Origin: Candidatus Omnitrophota bacterium
GTDB lineage: Bacteria > Omnitrophota > Gorgyraeia > Gygaellales > Profunditerraquicolaceae
NCBI GenBank assembly: GCA_041651035.1
Contig: JBAZKC010000002.1
Location: 201,046 to 265,045, forward strand
Direction: 5' to 3'
Length of the DNA: 64,000 nucleotides
Part shown: positions 2,434-40,366 of the stretch, piece by piece
How positions within the stretch are numbered: the first letter of the stretch is position 1
Layout of the letters: each line of letters begins with the position of its first letter
The notes under the pieces: model-generated
What the model was told of the DNA's origin: nothing
Seen by the model: only the letters and a program-made list of their open reading frames with translations
The model's database searches: none
Position numbers and translations under genes: made by a program

Positions 2434-5148
2434 ATGGATATTCCATCCCGCTATAATCCCAAAGACACAGAAGATAAGTGGTATAAGATCTGGGAAGAAA
2501 AGGATCTTTTCTCCGCGAAGCCCGATCCTGCCAAGAAACCCTTCTCTATAGTTATGCCTCCCCCGAATGTAACCGGGATATTACATATGGGCCATGCCTT
2601 AAACAACACTATTCAGGATATACTTATCCGTTATCACCGCATGAAAGGCGAAAGATCCCTTTGGATGCCGGGAACTGACCATGCCGGTATTGCCACGCAA
2701 AACGTAGTAGAAAGATCAATTGCCAAGGGAGGGCTTAAACGCCAGGATTTAGGCAGAGATAAATTTATCAAGAAGGTATGGGAATGGAAAGAACAATACG
2801 GCTCGACTATTACGCGCCAATTAAGAAAGTTGGGCGCTTCCTGTGACTGGGCAAGGGCCCGGTTTACCATGGACGAAGAATATTCCCGGGCGGTGATTGA
2901 AGTATTTGTAAGGCTTTACGAGAAAGATCTAATATATAGAGGTAATTATATTATTAACTGGTGCCCGCGCTGTCAAACCGCCCTTTCAGATGAAGAAGCT
3001 CCTCATCATGAAATACAGGGCAATTTGTATTATTTAAAGTATCCGCTTAAGCCGGGGCAGTTTCCTATGGGAACAGCTCCTGAATTTATAGTAGTCGCTA
3101 CTACCCGCCCCGAAACAATGCTGGGTGACACCGCTGTAGCGGTCAATCCTAAAGATAAACGTTATAAAAAGCTTGTCGGTAAAATCCTGATTTTGCCTTT
3201 AGTTAATAAAGAAATAAAAATAATCGCGGATAGTATGGTGGATATGGAATTCGGCACCGGCGCGGTCAAGGTAACTCCCGCTCACGACCCCAATGATTAC
3301 GCCTTAGGCAAGAAACACGGCTTGGAGTTTGTAAATGTGCTGGACCCCCGCGGAGGCATGAATGAGAACGCCGGCAATTACAAAGGCCTGGACAGATTTG
3401 AGGCAAGAAAAGTTATCCTAGAGAACCTGGAAGGCAAGGGCCTGCTTGAGAAAATAGAACCTCATACCTTATCCGCCGGACATTGTTACCGCTGCCACAC
3501 TATAATTGAACCGTATTTTTCAGAACAATGGTTTGTAAAGATGCAGCCGCTGGCAAAACCGGCAATAGAAGCGGTCAAAAAAGGAAAGATCAAATTTTTC
3601 CCCAAACGCTGGACTAAAGTTTATCTTAATTGGATGGATAATATCCAGGATTGGTGTATATCCAGGCAGATCTGGTGGGGCCATCGCCTGCCTGTCTACT
3701 ACTGTAAAGATTGTTGTAATCAGGGCAAGAAAGGTATAATTGTATCCCGCCTGAAGCCTGAAAAATGCCCGGATTGCGGTTCAGCGGATATCTATCAGGA
3801 CGCGGATGTCCTGGATACCTGGTTTTCAAGCTGGCTATGGCCTTTTGCCGCGTTTTACTGGCCAGAGGGACTGTCCCTGAAGGCCTGCCTGCCGGCAGGC
3901 AGGGGAGCTGCCCCTAAAGAAGATTTGAAATATTTTTATCCTACCTCGGTCTTAGTGACCGCGCCGGAGATCATTTTCTTTTGGGTCGCGCGCATGATCA
4001 TGGCTGGCATGGAATTTATGAAAGACATCCCCTTTAAGGATGTTTATATCCATGGTACAGTGCGCGATATTGAAGGCAAAAAGATGTCCAAATCTTTAGG
4101 CAATGTTATTGACCCTCTGGACATCATAAATGAATACGGCGTAGACGCGCTGCGCTTCAGCCTTATTTCCATAACCGCCCAGGGCCAGGACATATTCTTA
4201 TCCAAAGAAAGATTCGAGCAGGGAAGGAATTTTGCCAATAAGATCTGGAATGCCTCCAGGTTTATCTTGATGAATCTGGACCAGGGGCTTTCTCTAGAGG
4301 AGGCTGTCCCTAAGGAGAATTCAAACATTATTAATCGCTGGATCTTAAGCCGGCTCCACTCAACCTTAAAAGAAGTAAGTAAGGATCTGGATACCTATAA
4401 ATTTAATGAAGCGGCGAATACACTCTACGGGTTTTTCTGGCATGAATTTTGCGACTGGTACCTGGAAATAATTAAACCGGATATAAAAAATAGGGAAAAC
4501 CAGGCCGTTATGTATACTGTCCTGGAAGAATGCCTAAAACTGCTGCATCCTTTTATGCCTTTTGTCACTGAAGAAATCTGGCAGAGGATACGTGAGCAGG
4601 GAACAGCCCCTGCCGGGGATAGTATCATGATCCAGCCCTGGCCCCATATACAGGCGCGGATGATTGATAAAAAACTGGAAAAACACACGCAATGCCTGTT
4701 TGATGTGATCACGCAGATAAGGAACCTGCGCGGTTCAATAGAGATCAAACCGGAACAAGCAGTTAAAGTCTCTATCTATGCGCATTCTAAGGCCAAACAT
4801 AGCCTGCTTAAGGATAACGCGCGGATAATTGATAACCTTGCCAGGTTGGAAAGCCTGGAATTCCTTGTTTCCAGCCAGAGGCCCGGGGCTACTATCAGCG
4901 CCATAGCAGAAGATATAGATATATACCTGCATTTTACAGGCCTGCTTGATCTTGCCGGGGAACAACATAAGATAGAAGAAAAAATAAGTAACACAGAAAA
5001 AATTATTAGATCTAAGGGGCCCCGGATGGAAAATGCCGAGTTTATCAAAAAGGCGCCAAAAGAGATCATTGATAAAGAAAAGGAAAGCCTGGTTAAGCTA
5101 AACGCTGAGTTGGCCCGCCTTAGAAAGATGGCAGATGAATTACGTTAA
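2434..5148 (+). CDS. valS: Valyl-tRNA synthetase
   Basis: 904 aa. HMGH (HIGH-type) motif PNVTGILHMGHAL, KMSKS motif KMSKSLGNVIDP, and a C-terminal coiled coil. It carries a 14-18 aa in-frame insertion at aa 478-496 (see findings). Confidence 0.95.
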   Translation: MDIPSRYNPKDTEDKWYKIWEEKDLFSAKPDPAKKPFSIVMPPPNVTGILHMGHALNNTIQDILIRYHRMKGERSLWMPGTDHAGIATQNVVERSIAKGGLKRQDLGRDKFIKKVWEWKEQYGSTITRQLRKLGASCDWARARFTMDEEYSRAVIEVFVRLYEKDLIYRGNYIINWCPRCQTALSDEEAPHHEIQGNLYYLKYPLKPGQFPMGTAPEFIVVATTRPETMLGDTAVAVNPKDKRYKKLVGKILILPLVNKEIKIIADSMVDMEFGTGAVKVTPAHDPNDYALGKKHGLEFVNVLDPRGGMNENAGNYKGLDRFEARKVILENLEGKGLLEKIEPHTLSAGHCYRCHTIIEPYFSEQWFVKMQPLAKPAIEAVKKGKIKFFPKRWTKVYLNWMDNIQDWCISRQIWWGHRLPVYYCKDCCNQGKKGIIVSRLKPEKCPDCGSADIYQDADVLDTWFSSWLWPFAAFYWPEGLSLKACLPAGRGAAPKEDLKYFYPTSVLVTAPEIIFFWVARMIMAGMEFMKDIPFKDVYIHGTVRDIEGKKMSKSLGNVIDPLDIINEYGVDALRFSLISITAQGQDIFLSKERFEQGRNFANKIWNASRFILMNLDQGLSLEEAVPKENSNIINRWILSRLHSTLKEVSKDLDTYKFNEAANTLYGFFWHEFCDWYLEIIKPDIKNRENQAVMYTVLEECLKLLHPFMPFVTEEIWQRIREQGTAPAGDSIMIQPWPHIQARMIDKKLEKHTQCLFDVITQIRNLRGSIEIKPEQAVKVSIYAHSKAKHSLLKDNARIIDNLARLESLEFLVSSQRPGATISAIAEDIDIYLHFTGLLDLAGEQHKIEEKISNTEKIIRSKGPRMENAEFIKKAPKEIIDKEKESLVKLNAELARLRKMADELR

Positions 5149-5965: not shown

Positions 5966-7996
5966 ATGGAAAAGTTTAAACTGGTTTCGTCTTATGAGCC
6001 CTGCGGAGACCAGCCTAAAGCAATCAAGGAGCTGACTGAAACACTTTTCTCAGGCAACAGGTTCCAGACTCTTCTGGGGGTTACCGGAAGCGGAAAAACC
6101 TACACCCTTGCCAATGTTATCGCTAAATTAAACCTGCCGACTTTGGTGATCTCGCATAATAAAACTTTAGCCGCCCAGCTGTATTCAGAATTTAAAGAGT
6201 TTTTCCCGCATAACGCGGTGGAGTATTTTGTCAGCTACTACGATTATTACCAACCGGAAGCTTATATACCCTCAACAGATACTTATATAGAGAAAGATTC
6301 CGCCATCAATGACAGGCTGGACCGCTTAAGGCTTTCCGCGACGAGTTCGCTTATGTCGCGCAATGACTGCCTGATCGTCGCTTCCGTTTCCTGTATTTAT
6401 AATCTCGGCAGCCCCCAGGATTACCGCGGGTCGCTGGTCCTTATTAAGAAGGCACAGAACGTTTCCCGCGATGAGTTGATCTCGAGTCTTATTCAGATAC
6501 AATACGAAAGGAATGATCATGAATTTATACGCGGAAGGCTGCGGGTCAGAGGGGATGTGCTGGAGATCTTTCCTTCTTATCAGGAAAAAGGCTTACGCGT
6601 AGAATTTCTTGGCGATAAAATAGAACGGATCAGCGAGATAAATCCAGTATCGGGAGAAATCTTAAATACCCTGGAGAAAACAGCGGTATATCCGGCCAAG
6701 CATTTTACTGTTTCTCAAGATAAGATCGACGCGGCTATGGAATCTATAGAAAAGGAGTTGAAAGGCAGGGTTAAGGCCCTAACGAGTAAGAATAAGTTAT
6801 TGGAAGCCCAAAGGCTCAATACGCGCACGCGTTATGATATGGAAATGTTAAAAGAAATCGGTTATTGCCACGGAATTGAGAATTATTCCCGGCATCTTTC
6901 CGGAAGGCCCTCCGGTTTCAGGCCCTATTGCCTGATTGATTATTTCCCGCGGGATTTCTTGACCATAATCGACGAGTCACACGTGACTATCCCCCAAATA
7001 AGGGGTATGTATGAAGGTGACCGCGCCAGAAAAGAGGTTTTAACAGAATATGGATTCAGGCTCCCGTCATGTCTGGATAACCGCCCCTTAAAGTTTGATG
7101 AATTCAATGAACTTATAAAACAGGCGGTCTATGTCTCGGCAACGCCTAATGAATACGAAATTAAGCAGAGCAAAAAGAAAATAATTGAGCAGATAATCAG
7201 GCCTACAGGGTTAGTTGACCCCCAGATAATCATTAAACCTACCACGGGACAGATAGAAGACCTCATAAAAGAAGTCAAAGAACGCGCCAAGAAAAATGAA
7301 CGGGTTTTGGCGACCACCTTAACTAAACGCCTGGCAGAAGACCTAACAAGTTATTTACAGGAGAAGGGATTAAGGGTAAAATATCTACACTCTGAAATAA
7401 AGACCATCCAGCGTTCCAGCATCTTAAGGGCTTTAAGAAAAAGAGAGTTTGACTGCCTTATAGGGATAAACCTGTTAAGGGAAGGATTGGATCTGCCCGA
7501 AGTATCTTTAGTCGCGATACTTGATGCCGATAAAGAGGGGTTTTTACGTTCCGCTACTTCCTTGATCCAGGTTTCAGGCCGCGCGGCCCGTAATATAAAC
7601 GGAACGGTAATTATGTACGCGGATACCGTAACCGGCTCAATGAAAAAAGCGATCACTGAAAGCAACCGCCGCAGAATAATGCAAATGGAGTTTAATAAAA
7701 ATAATGGGATTACCCCGCGCTCTATTCAAAAGGCAATAAGGGAAGGGATAGAGGATTTGCAGGAATCAGAAGAATTCCTGGCTAACTTGACCGGGCAGGA
7801 GAAAGATGAATACGAATTAAACAAATATATTTCGGAATTAGAATACGAAATGGAATTAGCGGCAAGAAATTTACAATTTGAAAAGGCAGCGCTCATCAGA
7901 GACGAAATAAAAAAATTCAGGGACACCCAACTTGCCAAAGCTAAGCCTGCCTGCCGGCAGGCAGGGGTGTCCCCAGGAGTTAAGAAATGCTATTAG
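5966..7996 (+). CDS. uvrB: Excinuclease ABC subunit B
   Basis: 676 aa. Walker A GVTGSGKT, helicase motifs and the C-terminal UvrC-interaction coiled coil ([13 protein letters not shown]). It has a 20-aa C-terminal extension encoded by a palindromic repeat. Confidence 0.95.
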
Positions 7997-8730
7997 CTAT
8001 AGACATAGGCAATACCAATATCAGCTTTGGGATATTCAAAGCTATGAGGATCATAAAAAAGTTTGAGATCCCCACAAAATACTACAGCTTAAAAAAACTA
8101 AAGAAAAAGCTGCTTAATGCCAATATAGATGATACTCTCATCTGCAGCGTTGTGCCTAAGGCCTCTAAGGCCCTAAAAAGAGACCTGGAAAAACTATTAG
8201 GTAAGCAGCCCCTTATTATAGGTAAGGATATAGAGGTGCCCATAAAGAACCTTTACCGTAAGCCCGAACAGGTTGGGCAGGACCGGCTGGTCAATGCCTA
8301 CGCGGGAGTCCTGCTTTATAAAACCCCTTTAATTATTATCGATTTTGGCACTGCCGTAACTTTTGATGTTATATCCAAGAATAAAGAATACCTGGGGGGC
8401 ATGATCTTGCCGGGCCTTAAGGCCTCATTAGAGGCGCTCGCGGAGAAGACCGCGTTATTGCCCAAGATAAAATTAAACAAGCCTAAGGAGTTTATCGGCA
8501 GGGATACACAAAGCAGCATGCTTAGCGGTATAATTTATGGCTTTTCCGCCTTAACTGATGAACTGATCAAACAGATAAAGAAAAAAATAGGCAGGAATAC
8601 GCTGGCTATCGGCACCGGCGGCAATATCAGCCTGATTGGAAGGCACTGCAAAAGACTCGACGGGATAAACGCGGATTTAACGCTTACAGGTTTGAGCTTA
8701 ATCTACGAATCGCAGAGACTCTGCCGGTAA
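7987..8730 (+). CDS. coaX: Type III pantothenate kinase
   Basis: 247 aa. N-terminus [17 protein letters not shown] and the ASKHA fold motifs. The start overlaps the uvrB end by 10 nt. Confidence 0.85.
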
Positions 8731-23000: not shown

Positions 23001-23020
23001 CCTGCCTACCGGCAGGCAGG
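23001..23020. repeat. 20-bp palindrome CCTGCCTaCCGGCAGGCAGG directly abutting the hup RBS (GAGGAG)
   Basis: The same 20-mer (one mismatch) occurs at 3884-3903 inside valS and at 7946-7965 at the uvrB 3' end. Confidence 0.8.
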
Positions 23021-35938: not shown

Positions 35939-37333
35939 ATGAGAATACAAGTATTACGGCGCCAGTCAAAAGAACGGACAAAAGACTTCCTGGAAGTCGC
36001 TTTGGGGCTTTCCAAAGAAGAGGCGGAAAAAGAAGCAAGCCGCTGCCTTCAGTGCAAAAACCCTGCCTGCGTAAAAGGCTGCCCCGTCAATATAGATATA
36101 CCCGGCTTTATAAAACTGCTTAAAGAAAGTAAGCATAAAGAAGCGTTGGAGAAAATCAAAGAAAAGAATAATCTTCCGGCGGTCTGCGGCAGAGTATGCC
36201 CTCAAGAGAACCAGTGCGAAGCAGCCTGCGTCCTCAACAAGAAAAAAATACCTATAAATATCGGAGCCCTGGAAAGATACGCCGCGGATTATAAATCAAC
36301 CCATAGCCAAGATCTTATAACCCATAGCAAGCAGATGCAGGCTAAGATCGCGGTAGTAGGCTCAGGGCCGGCAGGACTAACCTGTGCCGCGGACCTGGCA
36401 AAAATGGATTATCGGGTTACTCTCTTTGAATCTTTGCATTTACCCGGAGGCGTATTGGCCTATGGAATACCGGAATTCAGGCTGCCTAAAGAAATCGTGG
36501 GAAGTGAAGTTGAATACATAAAAAGCCTGGGCGTAAATATAATAACCGATGCCCTTATTGGTTATACTCATACTATTGATGAATTATTACAGGAGGGTTT
36601 TAAGGCCATATTCGTAGCAACAGGCGCGGGCCTCCCGTTATTTTTAGGGATACCGGGGGAAAACTTAAACCGGGTTTACTCTGCCAACGAGTTCTTAACC
36701 CGTATTAACCTTATGAAGGCGTACAAATTCCCCGAATACGCCAGCCCTGTAAATATAGGCGAAAAGGTCGCGGTTATCGGCGGCGGGAATGTCGCGCTTG
36801 ACTGCGCGCGCGCTGCGCTCAGGTTAGGCAAACAAGTAACCCTGGCTTACCGGCGCACGGAAAAAGAAATGCCCGGCCGCGCTGAAGAAGTAGAAAATGC
36901 CAAAGAAGAAGGAGTGGTTTTTAAATTCTTAACCCAGCCGGTAAAAGTCCTTGGCGATGATAAAGGATTTGTAAAAGGCCTGGAATGTATTAAAATGGAG
37001 TTGGGAGAACCTGATGAATCAGGCAGGAGAAGGCCTGTCCCCGTAAAGGATTCCAATTTCATCCTGGATGTAGATACTATTATTGTAGCTATAGGGCAAA
37101 ACCCCAACCCGTTATTATCCAAAGTTACGCCCGGGCTTAAAACCAATAAAAACGGCACGATCTTTGTAGACGATAATTTTATGACCTCTCTGCCTGGAAT
37201 TTTTGCCGGAGGAGATATTATTACCGGCGCGGATACGGTTATTTCAGCTATGGGCGCAGGCAAAAAAGCCGCCGCCGCTATAGACAAATATATCAGGGAC
37301 ACCCAATCTGCTAAAGCTAAGGGTGTCCCCTAA
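35939..37333 (+). CDS. nfnB: NfnB/SudA/GltD-type NADPH-dependent oxidoreductase large subunit (glutamate synthase beta-chain homologue)
   Basis: 464 aa. N-terminal Fe-S cysteine motifs (CLQCKNPACVKGCP, CGRVCPQENQCEAAC) followed by FAD/NAD Rossmann motifs (VAVVGSGPAGL, VIGGGNVALD). The last 9 codons are encoded by a palindromic repeat. Confidence 0.8.
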   Translation: MRIQVLRRQSKERTKDFLEVALGLSKEEAEKEASRCLQCKNPACVKGCPVNIDIPGFIKLLKESKHKEALEKIKEKNNLPAVCGRVCPQENQCEAACVLNKKKIPINIGALERYAADYKSTHSQDLITHSKQMQAKIAVVGSGPAGLTCAADLAKMDYRVTLFESLHLPGGVLAYGIPEFRLPKEIVGSEVEYIKSLGVNIITDALIGYTHTIDELLQEGFKAIFVATGAGLPLFLGIPGENLNRVYSANEFLTRINLMKAYKFPEYASPVNIGEKVAVIGGGNVALDCARAALRLGKQVTLAYRRTEKEMPGRAEEVENAKEEGVVFKFLTQPVKVLGDDKGFVKGLECIKMELGEPDESGRRRPVPVKDSNFILDVDTIIVAIGQNPNPLLSKVTPGLKTNKNGTIFVDDNFMTSLPGIFAGGDIITGADTVISAMGAGKKAAAAIDKYIRDTQSAKAKGVP

Positions 37334-37410
37334 ATAAAAATAATTCCTAATAGGGGACACCCTCCCGATTGGTTGAAAGGGTGTCCCTCGATTGGCAAAA
37401 AGGGTGTCCC
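37296..37410. repeat. Cluster of three GGGACACCC / GGGTGTCCC hairpin elements (9-bp stems, about 16-nt loops) spanning the nfnB 3' end and the nfnB-panB spacer
   Basis: Element A runs 37296-37329; its loop AATCTGCTAAAGCTAA encodes the nfnB C-terminus. Element B runs 37354-37387. A third 3'-half GGGTGTCCC lies at 37402-37410. Compare the uvrB copy at 7920-7973. Confidence 0.85.
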
Positions 37411-37419
37411 TAAGAAAGA

Positions 37420-38259
37420 ATGGAAGAAGCAAGGATGGAGATTAAAGACATATTGTCTTTAAAAGGAAAACGTAAGATCACCATGCTTACTGCCTATGAT
37501 TATCCCATAGCTTCTCTGATCGATAAGGCTGGCATAGACATGATCCTGGTAGGCGATTCCCTGGCCAATGTAGTTTTAGGGCTGGATTCAACAACCCAGG
37601 TAGGCATGCAGGAGATGCTGCATCACGCTAAGGCAGTAACACGCGCGGTAAAACATTCCCTGGTAATTGGCGATATGCCTTATAATTCTTACCAGGTCAA
37701 TCCGCAAAACGCGGTAGAAAATGCCTTAAGGTTCATTAATGAAGCCCTGTGCCAGGCGGTAAAATTAGAGTGGTTTGATAAATGCCTGGAGGTAGCTAAA
37801 GGAATTATTCAGGCAGGGATACCTGTGATGGGGCATATTGGACTTACTCCGCAGACTGCCGATAAAATAGGGGGCTTTAAGGTGCAGGGAAAAGATGCCG
37901 ATACTGCCAGGCGGCTGATCGAACAGGCAACGGCATTGGAAAAACTGGGCTGTTTCTCCATTCTCCTTGAATGTATCCCCGACAGGATCACGGAATTGAT
38001 CACTAAAGAATTAAAGGTCCCTACGATAGGGATAGGGGCCGGGCCTTATTGCGACGGCCAGGTGCTGGTTACGTATGATATGCTGGGGCTCTCCCAGCGC
38101 CGCAGGCTGAAATTTGCCAAGAAATACGTTGATCTATCCGCGTTAATCGCTAAGGCCGTAGAAGAATTTAAACTTGAGGTAACAGGTAAAAAATTCCCCG
38201 CCGCCGAACACAGTTTCAGCATACAGGAAGAAGAACTTAAAAAATTAAATGAAAGGTAA
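37420..38259 (+). CDS. panB: 3-methyl-2-oxobutanoate hydroxymethyltransferase
   Basis: 279 aa. ITMLTAYDYP and VGDSLANVVLG motifs. Confidence 0.9.
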   Translation: MEEARMEIKDILSLKGKRKITMLTAYDYPIASLIDKAGIDMILVGDSLANVVLGLDSTTQVGMQEMLHHAKAVTRAVKHSLVIGDMPYNSYQVNPQNAVENALRFINEALCQAVKLEWFDKCLEVAKGIIQAGIPVMGHIGLTPQTADKIGGFKVQGKDADTARRLIEQATALEKLGCFSILLECIPDRITELITKELKVPTIGIGAGPYCDGQVLVTYDMLGLSQRRRLKFAKKYVDLSALIAKAVEEFKLEVTGKKFPAAEHSFSIQEEELKKLNER

Positions 38260-39049: not shown

Positions 39050-40366
39050 ATGACTGAGAATTTAATGGATAAGATCGTTTCACTATGCAAGCGCCGCGGG
39101 TTCATATTCCAATCCTCGGATATATACGGCGGCCTGGCCAATGCCTGGGATTACGGGCCATACGGGGTTGAGCTTAAAAATAACCTTAAGCGGGCCTGGT
39201 GGAAATCAGTTGTTTACCAGCGCGACGATATCTTCGGGATGGATGCCGCTATCCTCATGCATCCTAAAACCTGGGAGGCATCCGGCCATGTGCAGAACTT
39301 TTTTGACTTAAAAAGCGACTGCAAGGACTGTAAGAAACGTTTCAAGTCAGAAGATTTAAAGGGCTCCTTAAAATGCCCGGAGTGCGGCGGAGAACTGACA
39401 GAATCCCGGCCGTTTAATCTGATGTTTAAGACCCATCAGGGACCAATTGAGGATACCACAAACCAGATCTATTTACGCCCTGAAACCGCTCAAGGCATAT
39501 TTGTAAATTTCCTCAATATCCTTGATTCAAAACACCCTAAACTTCCGTTTGGGCTTGCTCAAATCGGAAAGTCTTTCCGCAATGAAATTACGCCGGGAAA
39601 CTTTACTTTCAGGACCCGCGAGTTTGAGCAGATGGAAATAGAATACTTTGTCCGCCCGGAAAATGCCGATGATAAGTTTAAGGAATGGGTGGATTACAGA
39701 TACAATTGGTATGTGGGGCTGGGGCTTAAAAAAGATAATTTAAGAATGCGCGCGCACGCCAAGGATGAACTCGCGCATTATGCTTTAGCGTGCACGGATA
39801 TAGAATACAATTTTCCTTTTGGCTTTTCAGAACTTGAGGGTATAGCTAACCGCGCTGATTTTGACCTGAAACAACACTCGGAATATAGCGGCAAAGACTT
39901 AAGATATTATGATGACGCGGCTAAAGAAAGGTTTTTCCCGTATATAATTGAGCCTTCCGGCGGAATAGACAGGGCCACCTTAGCGTTTTTAGTTGATGCT
40001 TATGCCGAAGAAATTGTCCGGGATGATACCCGTGTTGTCCTTAAGCTGCACAGGGATTTAGCGCCCATAAAGGCGGCGGTGCTGCCGCTTTTAAGGAACC
40101 GCCCCGAGATCGTGGAATTGGCCAAAAAAATATCCCAGGATCTAAGAAAAACCCTGGTTACTGTTTATGATGATACCGGGGCAATAGGCAAACTTTACCG
40201 CAGGCAGGATGAAGTCGGCACGCTTTTCTGCGTAACAGTAGATGTCCAGACACTGGAAGACAAACAGGTTACTGTCCGTAACAGGGATACCATGCTTCAG
40301 GAAAGAATCAGTATTGATAAACTAAGAGGTTATCTTTCAGAAAAAATAACCGGGGACGTTCCTTAA
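39050..40366 (+). CDS. glyQS: Glycyl-tRNA synthetase, alpha2 (eukaryote/archaeal-like) type
   Basis: 438 aa. Class-II motifs FRNEITPGNFTFRTREFEQMEIEYF and a zinc-ribbon insertion CKDCKKRF...CPECGG. Confidence 0.88.
   Translation: MTENLMDKIVSLCKRRGFIFQSSDIYGGLANAWDYGPYGVELKNNLKRAWWKSVVYQRDDIFGMDAAILMHPKTWEASGHVQNFFDLKSDCKDCKKRFKSEDLKGSLKCPECGGELTESRPFNLMFKTHQGPIEDTTNQIYLRPETAQGIFVNFLNILDSKHPKLPFGLAQIGKSFRNEITPGNFTFRTREFEQMEIEYFVRPENADDKFKEWVDYRYNWYVGLGLKKDNLRMRAHAKDELAHYALACTDIEYNFPFGFSELEGIANRADFDLKQHSEYSGKDLRYYDDAAKERFFPYIIEPSGGIDRATLAFLVDAYAEEIVRDDTRVVLKLHRDLAPIKAAVLPLLRNRPEIVELAKKISQDLRKTLVTVYDDTGAIGKLYRRQDEVGTLFCVTVDVQTLEDKQVTVRNRDTMLQERISIDKLRGYLSEKITGDVP

Follow-up and report, generated by a model that had tools for sequence, protein, structure and literature searches.

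Two clusters of hairpins in a 64,000-nt stretch of an Omnitrophota genome (Candidatus Omnitrophota bacterium, assembly GCA_041651035.1, 385-kb metagenome contig JBAZKC010000002.1, positions 201,046 to 265,045; hereafter the window) lie at the 3' end of uvrB and at the junction of nfnB and panB. We conclude, with a probability of about 0.82, that these hairpins are repetitive extragenic palindromes (REPs) in an arrangement of the REPIN type (REP doublet forming hairpin), and that they are the non-autonomous DNA partner of a REP-associated tyrosine transposase (RAYT) which is widespread in Omnitrophota. The window contains two forms of the element: a hairpin of type B, a 24-nt spacer, a hairpin of type A and an extra half unit at nfnB, and a single hairpin B at uvrB. 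The gene-less doublet can be read as a REPIN-like partner of a RAYT since hairpins B and A flank a RAYT gene in relatives of the window's genome. To judge from its sequence, the gene-less B-spacer-A composite appears to be a miniature of this B-RAYT-A unit. To our knowledge, REP and REPIN-RAYT systems have been studied almost only in Proteobacteria, and our literature search found no paper describing this repeat family or RAYTs in Omnitrophota.

Repeat copies in the window

The exact 9-mer GGGACACCC or its complement occurs seven times in the window, compared to 0.13 expected occurrences, and none of 100 shuffled sequences gave seven copies. All seven cores are confined to the uvrB 3' end and the nfnB-panB junction. 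At nfnB, hairpin B (37295-37330, plus strand, as are all REP features of the window) lies within the last 12 codons and encodes RDTQSAKAKGVP; the sequence of this first hairpin, from 37293 to 37330, is TCAGGGACACCCAATCTGCTAAAGCTAAGGGTGTCCCC. It consists of arm 1, (A)GGGACACCC, at 37296-37304, the 16-nt loop AATCTGCTAAAGCTAA at 37305-37320, and arm 2, GGGTGTCCC(C), at 37321-37329. The TAA stop codon of nfnB (37331-37333) follows directly and falls within the doublet spacer (37331-37353; the full 24 nt, CTAAATAAAAATAATTCCTAATAG, are 37330-37353). Hairpin A (37354-37387) has the loop TCCCGATTGGTTGAAA between arm 3 (GGGACACCC, 37354-37362) and arm 4 (GGGTGTCCC, 37379-37387). It is followed by an extra direct half unit (37388-37410), composed of the 14-nt spacer TCGATTGGCAAAAA and a fifth core, GGGTGTCCC, at 37402-37410. 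This half unit ends 9 nt 5' of the first panB ATG (37420) and 24 nt 5' of the called panB start (37435).

The translated open reading frame (ORF) of NfnB ends in ...KYIRDTQSAKAKGVP*. Thus, sequence and translation bear out an earlier reading of this DNA, made without database searches (the sequence-only reading), that the hairpin supplies the C-terminus of NfnB, with coordinates that differ by up to 3 nt. The further units it placed before panB are found as the second hairpin at 37354-37387 and the half unit to 37410.

The other copy, at the uvrB 3' end, is a hairpin B at 7919-7974, with arms at 7920-7928 and 7965-7973 and a loop consisting of AACTTGCCAAAGCTAAG and a nested palindrome. It is translated in frame, and the uvrB ORF continues to 7996, overlapping the start of coaX at 7987. 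The identity of the nfnB and uvrB copies, first estimated at about 90%, is 83% over 36 nt, with differences at 3 of the 29 positions in the element part. Both proteins read the repeat in the same frame as RDTQ[L/S]AKAK. It had also been proposed that both proteins end in this peptide; the peptide is common to both, but UvrB extends beyond it because the loop of its hairpin contains a second palindrome, CCTGCCTGCCGGCAGGCAGG, so that the translation crosses this nested palindrome (7946-7965) and then the 3' arm of the hairpin. An Rfam scan of the whole window at gathering scores returned a tRNA-Arg only. Matches to a degenerate core and loop pattern at 1355, 1388 and 18943 were set aside as chance, with ordinary coding sequence at these positions.

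A RAYT gene between hairpins B and A

We compared the window with loci from metagenome-assembled genomes (MAGs) or metagenome stretches, which are designated by L-numbers (e.g., L125). A tblastn search of all collected loci, in which E. coli K-12 RayT and then the Omnitrophota protein were used as queries, recovered a 160-aa ORF of the HUH/Y1 type in L230 (E = 2e-8), L158, L194/L215, L198/L114 and L137. These are five distinct loci from about five organisms, and in every one of them the ORF is found between a B unit and an A unit, the arrangement of a REPtron, in which repeats in inverted orientation flank a RAYT gene. The full unit has a length of about 700 bp, in which hairpin B is followed after ~90 nt by the 160-aa RAYT gene and, 4-12 nt after its stop codon, by hairpin A.

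The best tblastn match to E. coli RayT has an identity of only ~27% over 121 residues. Profile scoring was done on two of the RAYT sequences, which reach 58.7 and 65 bits with the Pfam model Y1_Tnp (PF01797), 80.5 and 78 bits with the NCBIfam model for REP-associated tyrosine transposases (NF047646, cutoff 80), and 18.8 and 21.1 bits with the IS200 model (NF033573, cutoff 55). The sole match in the PDB is 4ER8, the TnpA-REP protein of E. coli, with which both the HUH motif (PNHIH) and the tyrosine of the YxxxNP motif align. A database search found 1661 homologues at E <= 1e-20. Their protein clusters have 1-6 member sequences and, among the matches listed, all clusters named after a phylum belong to Omnitrophota.

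The RAYTs of L114, L158 and L137 are 78-81% identical to one another, and all three genes are located between the same divergent pair of extracytoplasmic function (ECF) sigma and anti-sigma genes and the same convergent gene for a 721-aa protein. The RAYTs of L230 and L194 have a common upstream neighbour, which is different from that of the other three. Conservation of the site, as seen here, has been described as typical of RAYTs and not of insertion sequences (PMC5581495). In the loci compared, the Omnitrophota RAYT therefore seems to behave like a single-copy, vertically inherited gene.

Four of the five distinct loci (L137, L158, L198/L114 and L230) have the conserved motif TTGTTAGAAAT between hairpin B and the RAYT gene, ~40-60 nt before the start codon, and L194/L215 has the related TTGTTAGATTT. 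It may be a promoter or an element of the 5' untranslated region. Many RAYT-bearing contigs in the protein list are only ~0.6-2 kb long, which is probably the result of assemblies breaking at the flanking repeats.

A modular repeat family in Omnitrophota

Genome collections were scanned, with one genome per species, for the pattern GGGACACCC-N10-40-GGGTGTCCC. Hits to the bare pattern are mostly chance matches or unrelated REP families from high-GC genomes. The loop modules, in contrast, are common only to low-GC Omnitrophota loci and one MAG labelled 'Planctomycetales'. By these modules, which in the Omnitrophota MAGs are a 14-nt spacer TTTTTGCCAATCGR between direct cores and a 16-nt loop TTTTWGCYAAAGCTAA between inverted cores, the family is present in at least 16 Omnitrophota MAG loci. 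For metagenomes, we used the 20-mer GCYAAAGCTAAGGGTGTCCC as the query, which comprises loop B and the 3' arm and leaves the 5' arm free to vary. It occurs in at least 120 metagenome stretches, and the counts below (n = 95, 44 and 119 copies) were drawn among the matches listed for it. No copy of the repeat was found on viral contigs. The repeat was originally taken for a dispersed element resembling REPs or miniature inverted-repeat transposable elements (MITEs), and the many copies in genomes and metagenomes, together with the hairpins flanking a RAYT-type gene, agree with this view, whereas a local duplication without further copies does not fit the result of either pattern scan.

The canonical doublet has the order hairpin B, a spacer of ~6, 16 or 24 nt, and hairpin A. 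The consensus of hairpin B is AGGGACACCC-(nnnnn)GCYAAAGCTAA-GGGTGTCCC and that of hairpin A is GGGACACCC-TYCCGATTRGnnnnAA-GGGTGTCCC / GGGTGTCCCT, with the loop consensus derived from 44 composites. Since hairpin A on the opposite strand resembles hairpin B, the composite as a whole is an imperfect inverted repeat. Spacer lengths in the 44 composites cluster at 6 nt (11 copies), 16 nt (13) and 24 nt (7). The single unit is a palindrome of 34-36 nt, dispersed and far above chance expectation, and fits the 20-40 nt expected of a REP.

Among 95 copies with enough flanking sequence, the architectures '><' (27), '><><' (26), '>><' (13), '><><<' (10) and '><<' (5) were found. REPIN-type forms ('><><' and '><><<') thus account for 36 copies, and the five-core '><><<' of the window is a recurrent form because it is seen in 10 of the 95. 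The first core is preceded by A in 86 copies, and the last core is followed by T in 64 and by C in 29. TAG is present at the outermost arm in roughly 40% of these copies, and CGTC was seen only within the variant stem GGGACGTC, never as a tag. Four copies in L085 are built like the reverse complement of window positions 37353-37410. In L224, L227, L229, L243, L248, L082 and L089, some copies have AGCCGCTC or GAGCGGCTC in place of an internal GGGACACCC core, with the loop modules kept; modules and cores can therefore vary independently.

Multi-copy palindromes that share the GGGACACCC/GGGTGTCCC stem ends and have different loops were observed in other phyla, namely in Gammaproteobacteria (L058, L059, L061, L068, L072, L106 and L113), Acidobacteriota (L026, L051, L083, L109 and L118) and Elusimicrobia (L027, L086 and L093). 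The common stem ends may be due to convergence or coincidence. A gammaproteobacterial MAG (L024, 2553-2825) has three tandem 110-bp units, each with an identical GGGACACCC...GGGTGTCCC hairpin, and weak Y1/RAYT-like tblastn matches were obtained in three other gammaproteobacterial loci (L008, L013 and L016).

Folding and covariation of the arms

Folded as RNA, hairpin B of nfnB is predicted to have a free energy of -19.0 kcal/mol (z -4.95) and the uvrB element one of -33.7 kcal/mol (z -3.87). The predicted minimum-energy fold of the composite at 37290-37415 is one nested hairpin (-55.8 kcal/mol, z -6.2), in which arm 1 pairs with arm 4 and arm 2 with arm 3, and the 24-nt spacer forms the terminal loop. 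In the 44 metagenome composites, this nested pairing yields 770 Watson-Crick and 15 G-U pairs, with 7 mismatches, compared to 732, 31 and 29, respectively, for local pairing of arm 1 with arm 2 and arm 3 with arm 4; arm 2 is fixed by the search pattern in these counts, and the covarying copies may trace to few events. The arm-1 variants GGGACGTCT, GGGACGTCC and GGGACGTTC occur together with the matching arm-4 variants AGACGTCCC, GGACGTCCC and GAACGTCCC, and the inner arms are canonical. In L134 the outer arms, GGGTCAGGC and GCCTGACCC, have a wholly different sequence and are still complementary at 9 of 9 positions. Covariation of the outer arms fits a long hairpin, or matched ends that are recognised by one enzyme.

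Orthologous sites in different states

The gene block apbE-nfnA-(mgtE or ATPase)-nfnB-panB-x-glyS-ppdK-sigma is syntenic in L123 to L129. At the nfnB-panB junction, where the window has '><', a 24-nt spacer and '><<', L125 and L126 have the same five-core build, with GGGACGCCC as arm 1 and GATTACCAAAAA loops. L123 has a direct array, '>>B<', with GGGACGTC cores, and L252 a singlet. L253 has an inverted doublet, that is the reverse of A followed by the reverse of B, which starts at the identical nucleotide (aaatatatcaGGGACACCC). No element is present in L127, L128 and L129, in which nfnB and panB overlap, abut or are 40 nt apart. L127 and L129 are the closest relatives of the window (~76-84% identity over 5-6 proteins), and no core is present in 15-21 kb of either. 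In the more distant L125, three junctions hold 10 cores within 21 kb, and L123, also more distant, is likewise rich in REPs. All copies in L125 carry GATTACCAAAAA, and the window carries GATTGGCAAAAA. This distribution looks like that of a mobile family or of one evolving in concert.

In about 17 of 120 NfnB homologues, a REP-encoded tail follows directly after KYI; examples are RDTQSAKAKGVP, RDTQLTNRKGVP, RDTLFANRGTPF, RDTH* and RDTQ*. NCBI assigns the window's NfnB to a Candidatus Omnitrophota MAG, and the next best homologue has an identity of 82%. The uvrB 3' end is likewise occupied in L183/L241 (...KTLRDVFAAKAKGVP*), L218 and L216. Since the 24-nt spacer at nfnB in the window and the spacer of the uvrB copy in L183 are ~71% identical (17 of 24 positions, counted manually), the composite appears to spread as a unit in that subfamily. 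At the glyS 3' end, where L125 has a full '><<' cluster, the window has GGGGACGTTCC followed by TTAAG (40352-40362; protein ...GDVP*), which may be the relic of a decayed REP; it is a weak candidate, being a single degenerate core with no partner arm.

A comparison of occupied (window) and empty (L127 and L129) sites revealed no target-site duplication, at the low resolution that ~18% protein divergence allows. In the 95 copies the flanks are A/T-rich with no fixed TA, and the associated gene is of the Y1 and not the DDE type, which argues against a MITE of a DDE transposon. Occupancy of the same sites could be explained by an ancient insertion with subsequent loss and homogenisation, by target preference, or by inversion in situ between the outer arms, which would explain the identical boundary in L253; all three are possible.

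Hairpins of other kinds were observed in the same block. The glyS-ppdK spacer of L127 (~8510-8600) has inverted repeats with TGACAC-rich arms, which do not belong to the GGGACACCC family, and further inverted repeats occur in the apbE-nfnA and glyS-ppdK spacers of L123. Hairpins behind these genes may be a general feature whose sequence changes.

Proposed mechanism and what weighs against it

By analogy to E. coli TnpA-REP and the IS200/IS605 family, the RAYT would recognise the hairpins in single-stranded DNA, on one strand, cut beside them, and copy or move the doublet in trans. Such movement would produce no target-site duplication. The copies are seen to persist mainly at tolerated sites, such as the last codons of genes and short intergenic spacers, at which they can supply C-terminal residues and stop codons. 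The loop variant is particular to each genome, and some lineages lack copies in the stretches sampled.

Several points weigh against the conclusion that the window hairpins are REPs served by a RAYT. No RAYT gene is present in the 64 kb of the window, and none of the best 120 homologues could be recognised as that of the window's own genome; the link between RAYT and repeat therefore rests on relatives. One of the two RAYTs scored is, at 78 bits, just below the cutoff of its model. The stems are short (9-10 bp) and the loops long (16 nt) and conserved in sequence, unlike those of most described REPs, and the GTAG tag is rare, as position -3 is G in only 4 of 95 outermost arms. Neither a transposition event nor an excision polymorphism or cleavage site was seen in the material compared. 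Finally, the same nfnB and uvrB positions are occupied in several species, with conserved hairpins and varying spacers, which could reflect selection for a function in the host.

Gene ends and possible host functions

In rough ORF calls around 119 copies, both flanking genes are co-oriented with the B-to-A direction in 38 copies, both are opposed (antisense) in 16, and they are convergent in five and divergent in five. If only the gene 5' of hairpin B is considered, 61 have the B-to-A orientation and 33 the opposite one. Of those 61 co-oriented upstream ORFs, about 44 end within the element or at most ~15 nt from it, and about 29 end inside or abut it, as judged from rough ORF distances. In about ten upstream ORFs the TAG of TAGGGACACCC is seemingly used as the stop codon. 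The preference for gene 3' ends suggested by the sequence-only reading is thus seen as a bias, with the antisense and divergent copies as exceptions. This bias is no proof of targeting, because compact genomes leave few other tolerated sites. Another possible cause of the association with gene ends is a replication-strand bias of the kind known from single-strand transposition.

A scan for terminators found no T-run or intrinsic terminator site in 36800-37800. The sequences following the stems in the window, CTAAATAAAA and TAAGAAAG, have no U-tract, and with their 16-nt loops the hairpins do not resemble intrinsic terminators; T runs follow a few copies elsewhere (L145, L148 and L246). If transcribed with their genes, the copies would, by the predicted folds, place stable RNA hairpins on stop codons or directly behind them, and might have a secondary influence on mRNA 3' ends or translation termination.

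It is conceivable, if rather doubtful, that the doublets at the nfnB and uvrB ends have been co-opted as stop codons, as C-terminal tails and as hairpins that overlap the termination codon. Such a hairpin would tune translation termination, operon polarity (nfnB-panB and uvrB-coaX) or the stability of mRNA 3' ends. Selection, and not repeated insertion, would then explain why hairpins are conserved at orthologous sites and the spacer drifts, and Omnitrophota would harbour a long-lived, vertically inherited RAYT-REPIN partnership with a function in the host.

Another reading is that the hairpins are primarily RNA elements selected by the host, which would serve as factor-dependent terminators, stabilise 3' ends or slow translation termination. 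Selection would conserve their sequence and positions, and the link with a transposase would be secondary. We consider this unlikely. It would agree with the occupancy of the same nfnB and uvrB positions in several species, the conservation of arms and loop parts next to variable spacers, the ~2:1 co-orientation and the upstream genes that end in or near the element (~44 of 61), and the predicted stability of the RNA hairpins. Yet, there is no U-tract, and in L127 and L129 the element is missing from the junction and from 15-21 kb in all; as it is absent there, with nfnB and panB overlapping or abutting, the element is dispensable in these organisms. Moreover, both orientations occur at the nfnB-panB site, 16 copies run antisense to the genes on both sides and five separate divergent genes, the loop variant is specific to a genome and common to all of its copies, and hairpins of both types flank the RAYT gene. 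Most arm-1 variants (GGGACGYYY) can pair with GGGUGUCCC via G-U (22 G-U versus 3 mismatches), which was at first counted as evidence for an RNA hairpin. We have downgraded it, since most of this signal is due to a single subfamily, in which the two outer arms pair with each other. In these copies the arm-1 variant is matched by one in arm 4, which supports outer-arm pairing or matched ends instead.

Less likely readings: insertion sequence or uptake sequence

Alternatively, the B-gene-A unit could be an active insertion sequence (IS) of the IS200/IS605 type, of which the gene-less doublets would be miniatures comparable to MITEs or to palindrome-associated transposable elements (PATEs). Like IS200, the ~700-bp unit has a Y1_Tnp gene between two subterminal hairpins; in addition, one of the two tested proteins is 2 bits below the cutoff of the RAYT model, and the family is patchy among relatives. 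However, the RAYT model scores ~60 bits above the IS200 model, which remains far below its own cutoff. Furthermore, the neighbours of the gene are conserved among three genomes with RAYTs of only 78-81% identity, which would not be the case for a hopping IS. RAYT protein clusters are found on few contigs and the repeat on no viral contig. We therefore regard an active IS as very unlikely and prefer to describe the gene as a RAYT with REPIN-like partners.

A role of the 9-10-mer as a DNA uptake sequence, comparable to the DNA uptake sequences (DUS) of Neisseria or the uptake signal sequences (USS) of Pasteurellaceae, which also occur as inverted pairs behind genes and within coding regions, would account for the conservation of a short oriented core in many genomes of a single phylum, for the frequent inverted pairs at gene ends and for the T-rich stretch after the core (GGGACACCCTTTTT...), but it is highly improbable and was dropped, since the cores are sparse (7 in 64 kb, in two clusters, compared to about one per kb), three related genomes have none in 15-21 kb each, and the cores come embedded in fixed loop and spacer modules of discrete doublet classes, which flank a transposase gene.

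Relation to known systems

REPINs consist of two inverted REPs with a spacer and are mobilised in trans by RAYTs (PMC3337134, PMC3116915); such systems are known from Pseudomonas fluorescens and Enterobacteriaceae (PMC3116915, PMC3337134, PMC5581495). The Omnitrophota family resembles them in that the whole unit folds as one long hairpin, that singlets and clusters occur alongside doublets, that a repeat-flanked Y1/HUH gene which matches the RAYT model is found at a conserved chromosomal site, and that sequence variants are genome-specific and related genomes free of copies exist. It differs in the lack of a GTAG tag, in its stems of 9-10 bp with conserved 16-nt loops, and in having two halves that are different hairpin types (B and A), as in heterodimers. 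Its spacers are very short (6, 16 and 24 nt) and many copies overlap the last codons of genes. Finally, the phylum is a different one.

The mosaics of alternately oriented palindromic units and linker motifs behind genes inside operons are reminiscent of the REPs and bacterial interspersed mosaic elements (BIMEs) of E. coli (PMC3479197), and E. coli TnpA-REP (4ER8, PMC3479197) is the only solved relative of the Omnitrophota protein. Unlike the Omnitrophota family, the REPs of E. coli are imperfect palindromes that are extragenic, bear a GTAG tag and have small loops. The linkers of E. coli BIMEs are conserved motifs that bind host proteins, and no such binding is known for the Omnitrophota family.

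Most REPs are sorted by their GTAG or CGTC tags in a survey that also reports intragenic REPs, among them copies in repair genes and at the ends of ORFs (PMC3733652). REPs in phyla of the Planctomycetes-Verrucomicrobia-Chlamydiae (PVC) group are already known as well. As in the palindromic elements of Rickettsia and the intragenic GTAG/CGTC REPs (PMC3733652), palindromes are read in frame in conserved proteins: the tails of uvrB and nfnB are encoded by the REP, and the valyl-tRNA synthetase (ValRS) contains a palindrome of the second family, P, described below. In contrast to these elements, the repeat belongs to a different family and mostly replaces the last few residues and supplies the stop codon instead of interrupting domains. 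The parallel to intragenic REPs is also limited by the fact that the ValRS insertion belongs to the P family and not to the GGGACACCC family.

With IS200/IS605 elements and PATEs the unit shares the Y1 HUH gene between two subterminal hairpins and gene-less miniatures that keep both ends; like IS200/IS605, it needs neither classical terminal inverted repeats nor target duplications. Unlike IS200/IS605, the Omnitrophota protein scores far below the IS200 model, and its gene is syntenic in three genomes.

Omnitrophota are a phylum of ultra-small, partly host-dependent bacteria, and both the persistence of REPIN-RAYT systems and their benefit to the host are still debated. The present family would add an uncultured phylum to these systems, with a compact and easily recognised repeat that has two hairpin ends and three spacer classes. 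Its orthologous sites in varied states are suited to dating gain, loss and inversion, and to the question of whether REPs decay once the RAYT is lost. For annotation it matters that the repeats lengthen or alter annotated C-termini (NfnB and UvrB), that the P palindrome adds residues to ValRS, and that the repeats probably break metagenome assemblies. The finding opens no new mechanism; the element is of a known kind, which by analogy would now provide a mechanism for the sequence-only reading, and this reading holds in its essentials.

A second palindrome family and other features of the window

The perfect palindrome CCTGCCTGCCGGCAGGCAGG nested in the loop of the uvrB REP (7946-7965, no strand assigned, as for the other P copies) belongs to a second family, termed P. 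Another copy (3884-3903) lies in frame in the ValRS gene (2434-5148), within a 14-residue insertion; an alignment with Thermus thermophilus ValRS (PDB 1GAX) shows a 14-residue gap exactly at the palindrome. A third, intergenic copy with one mismatch (23001-23020) stops 11 nt short of the start codon (ATG) of a small HU/IHF-like gene. It continues at its 3' end into GGGAGGAG, and its predicted fold has a free energy of -14.9 kcal/mol (z -2.67). P palindromes were also found in L102, L133, L148, L180 and L239, either alone in spacers or nested in REP loops, and in L102 and L148 they are nested beside a GGGTGTCCC core, as at uvrB in the window.

Elsewhere in the window, positions 11113-16614 contain an ORF of 1833 aa, and near 53.7 kb the gene orientation changes from plus to minus, so that the genes converge there.

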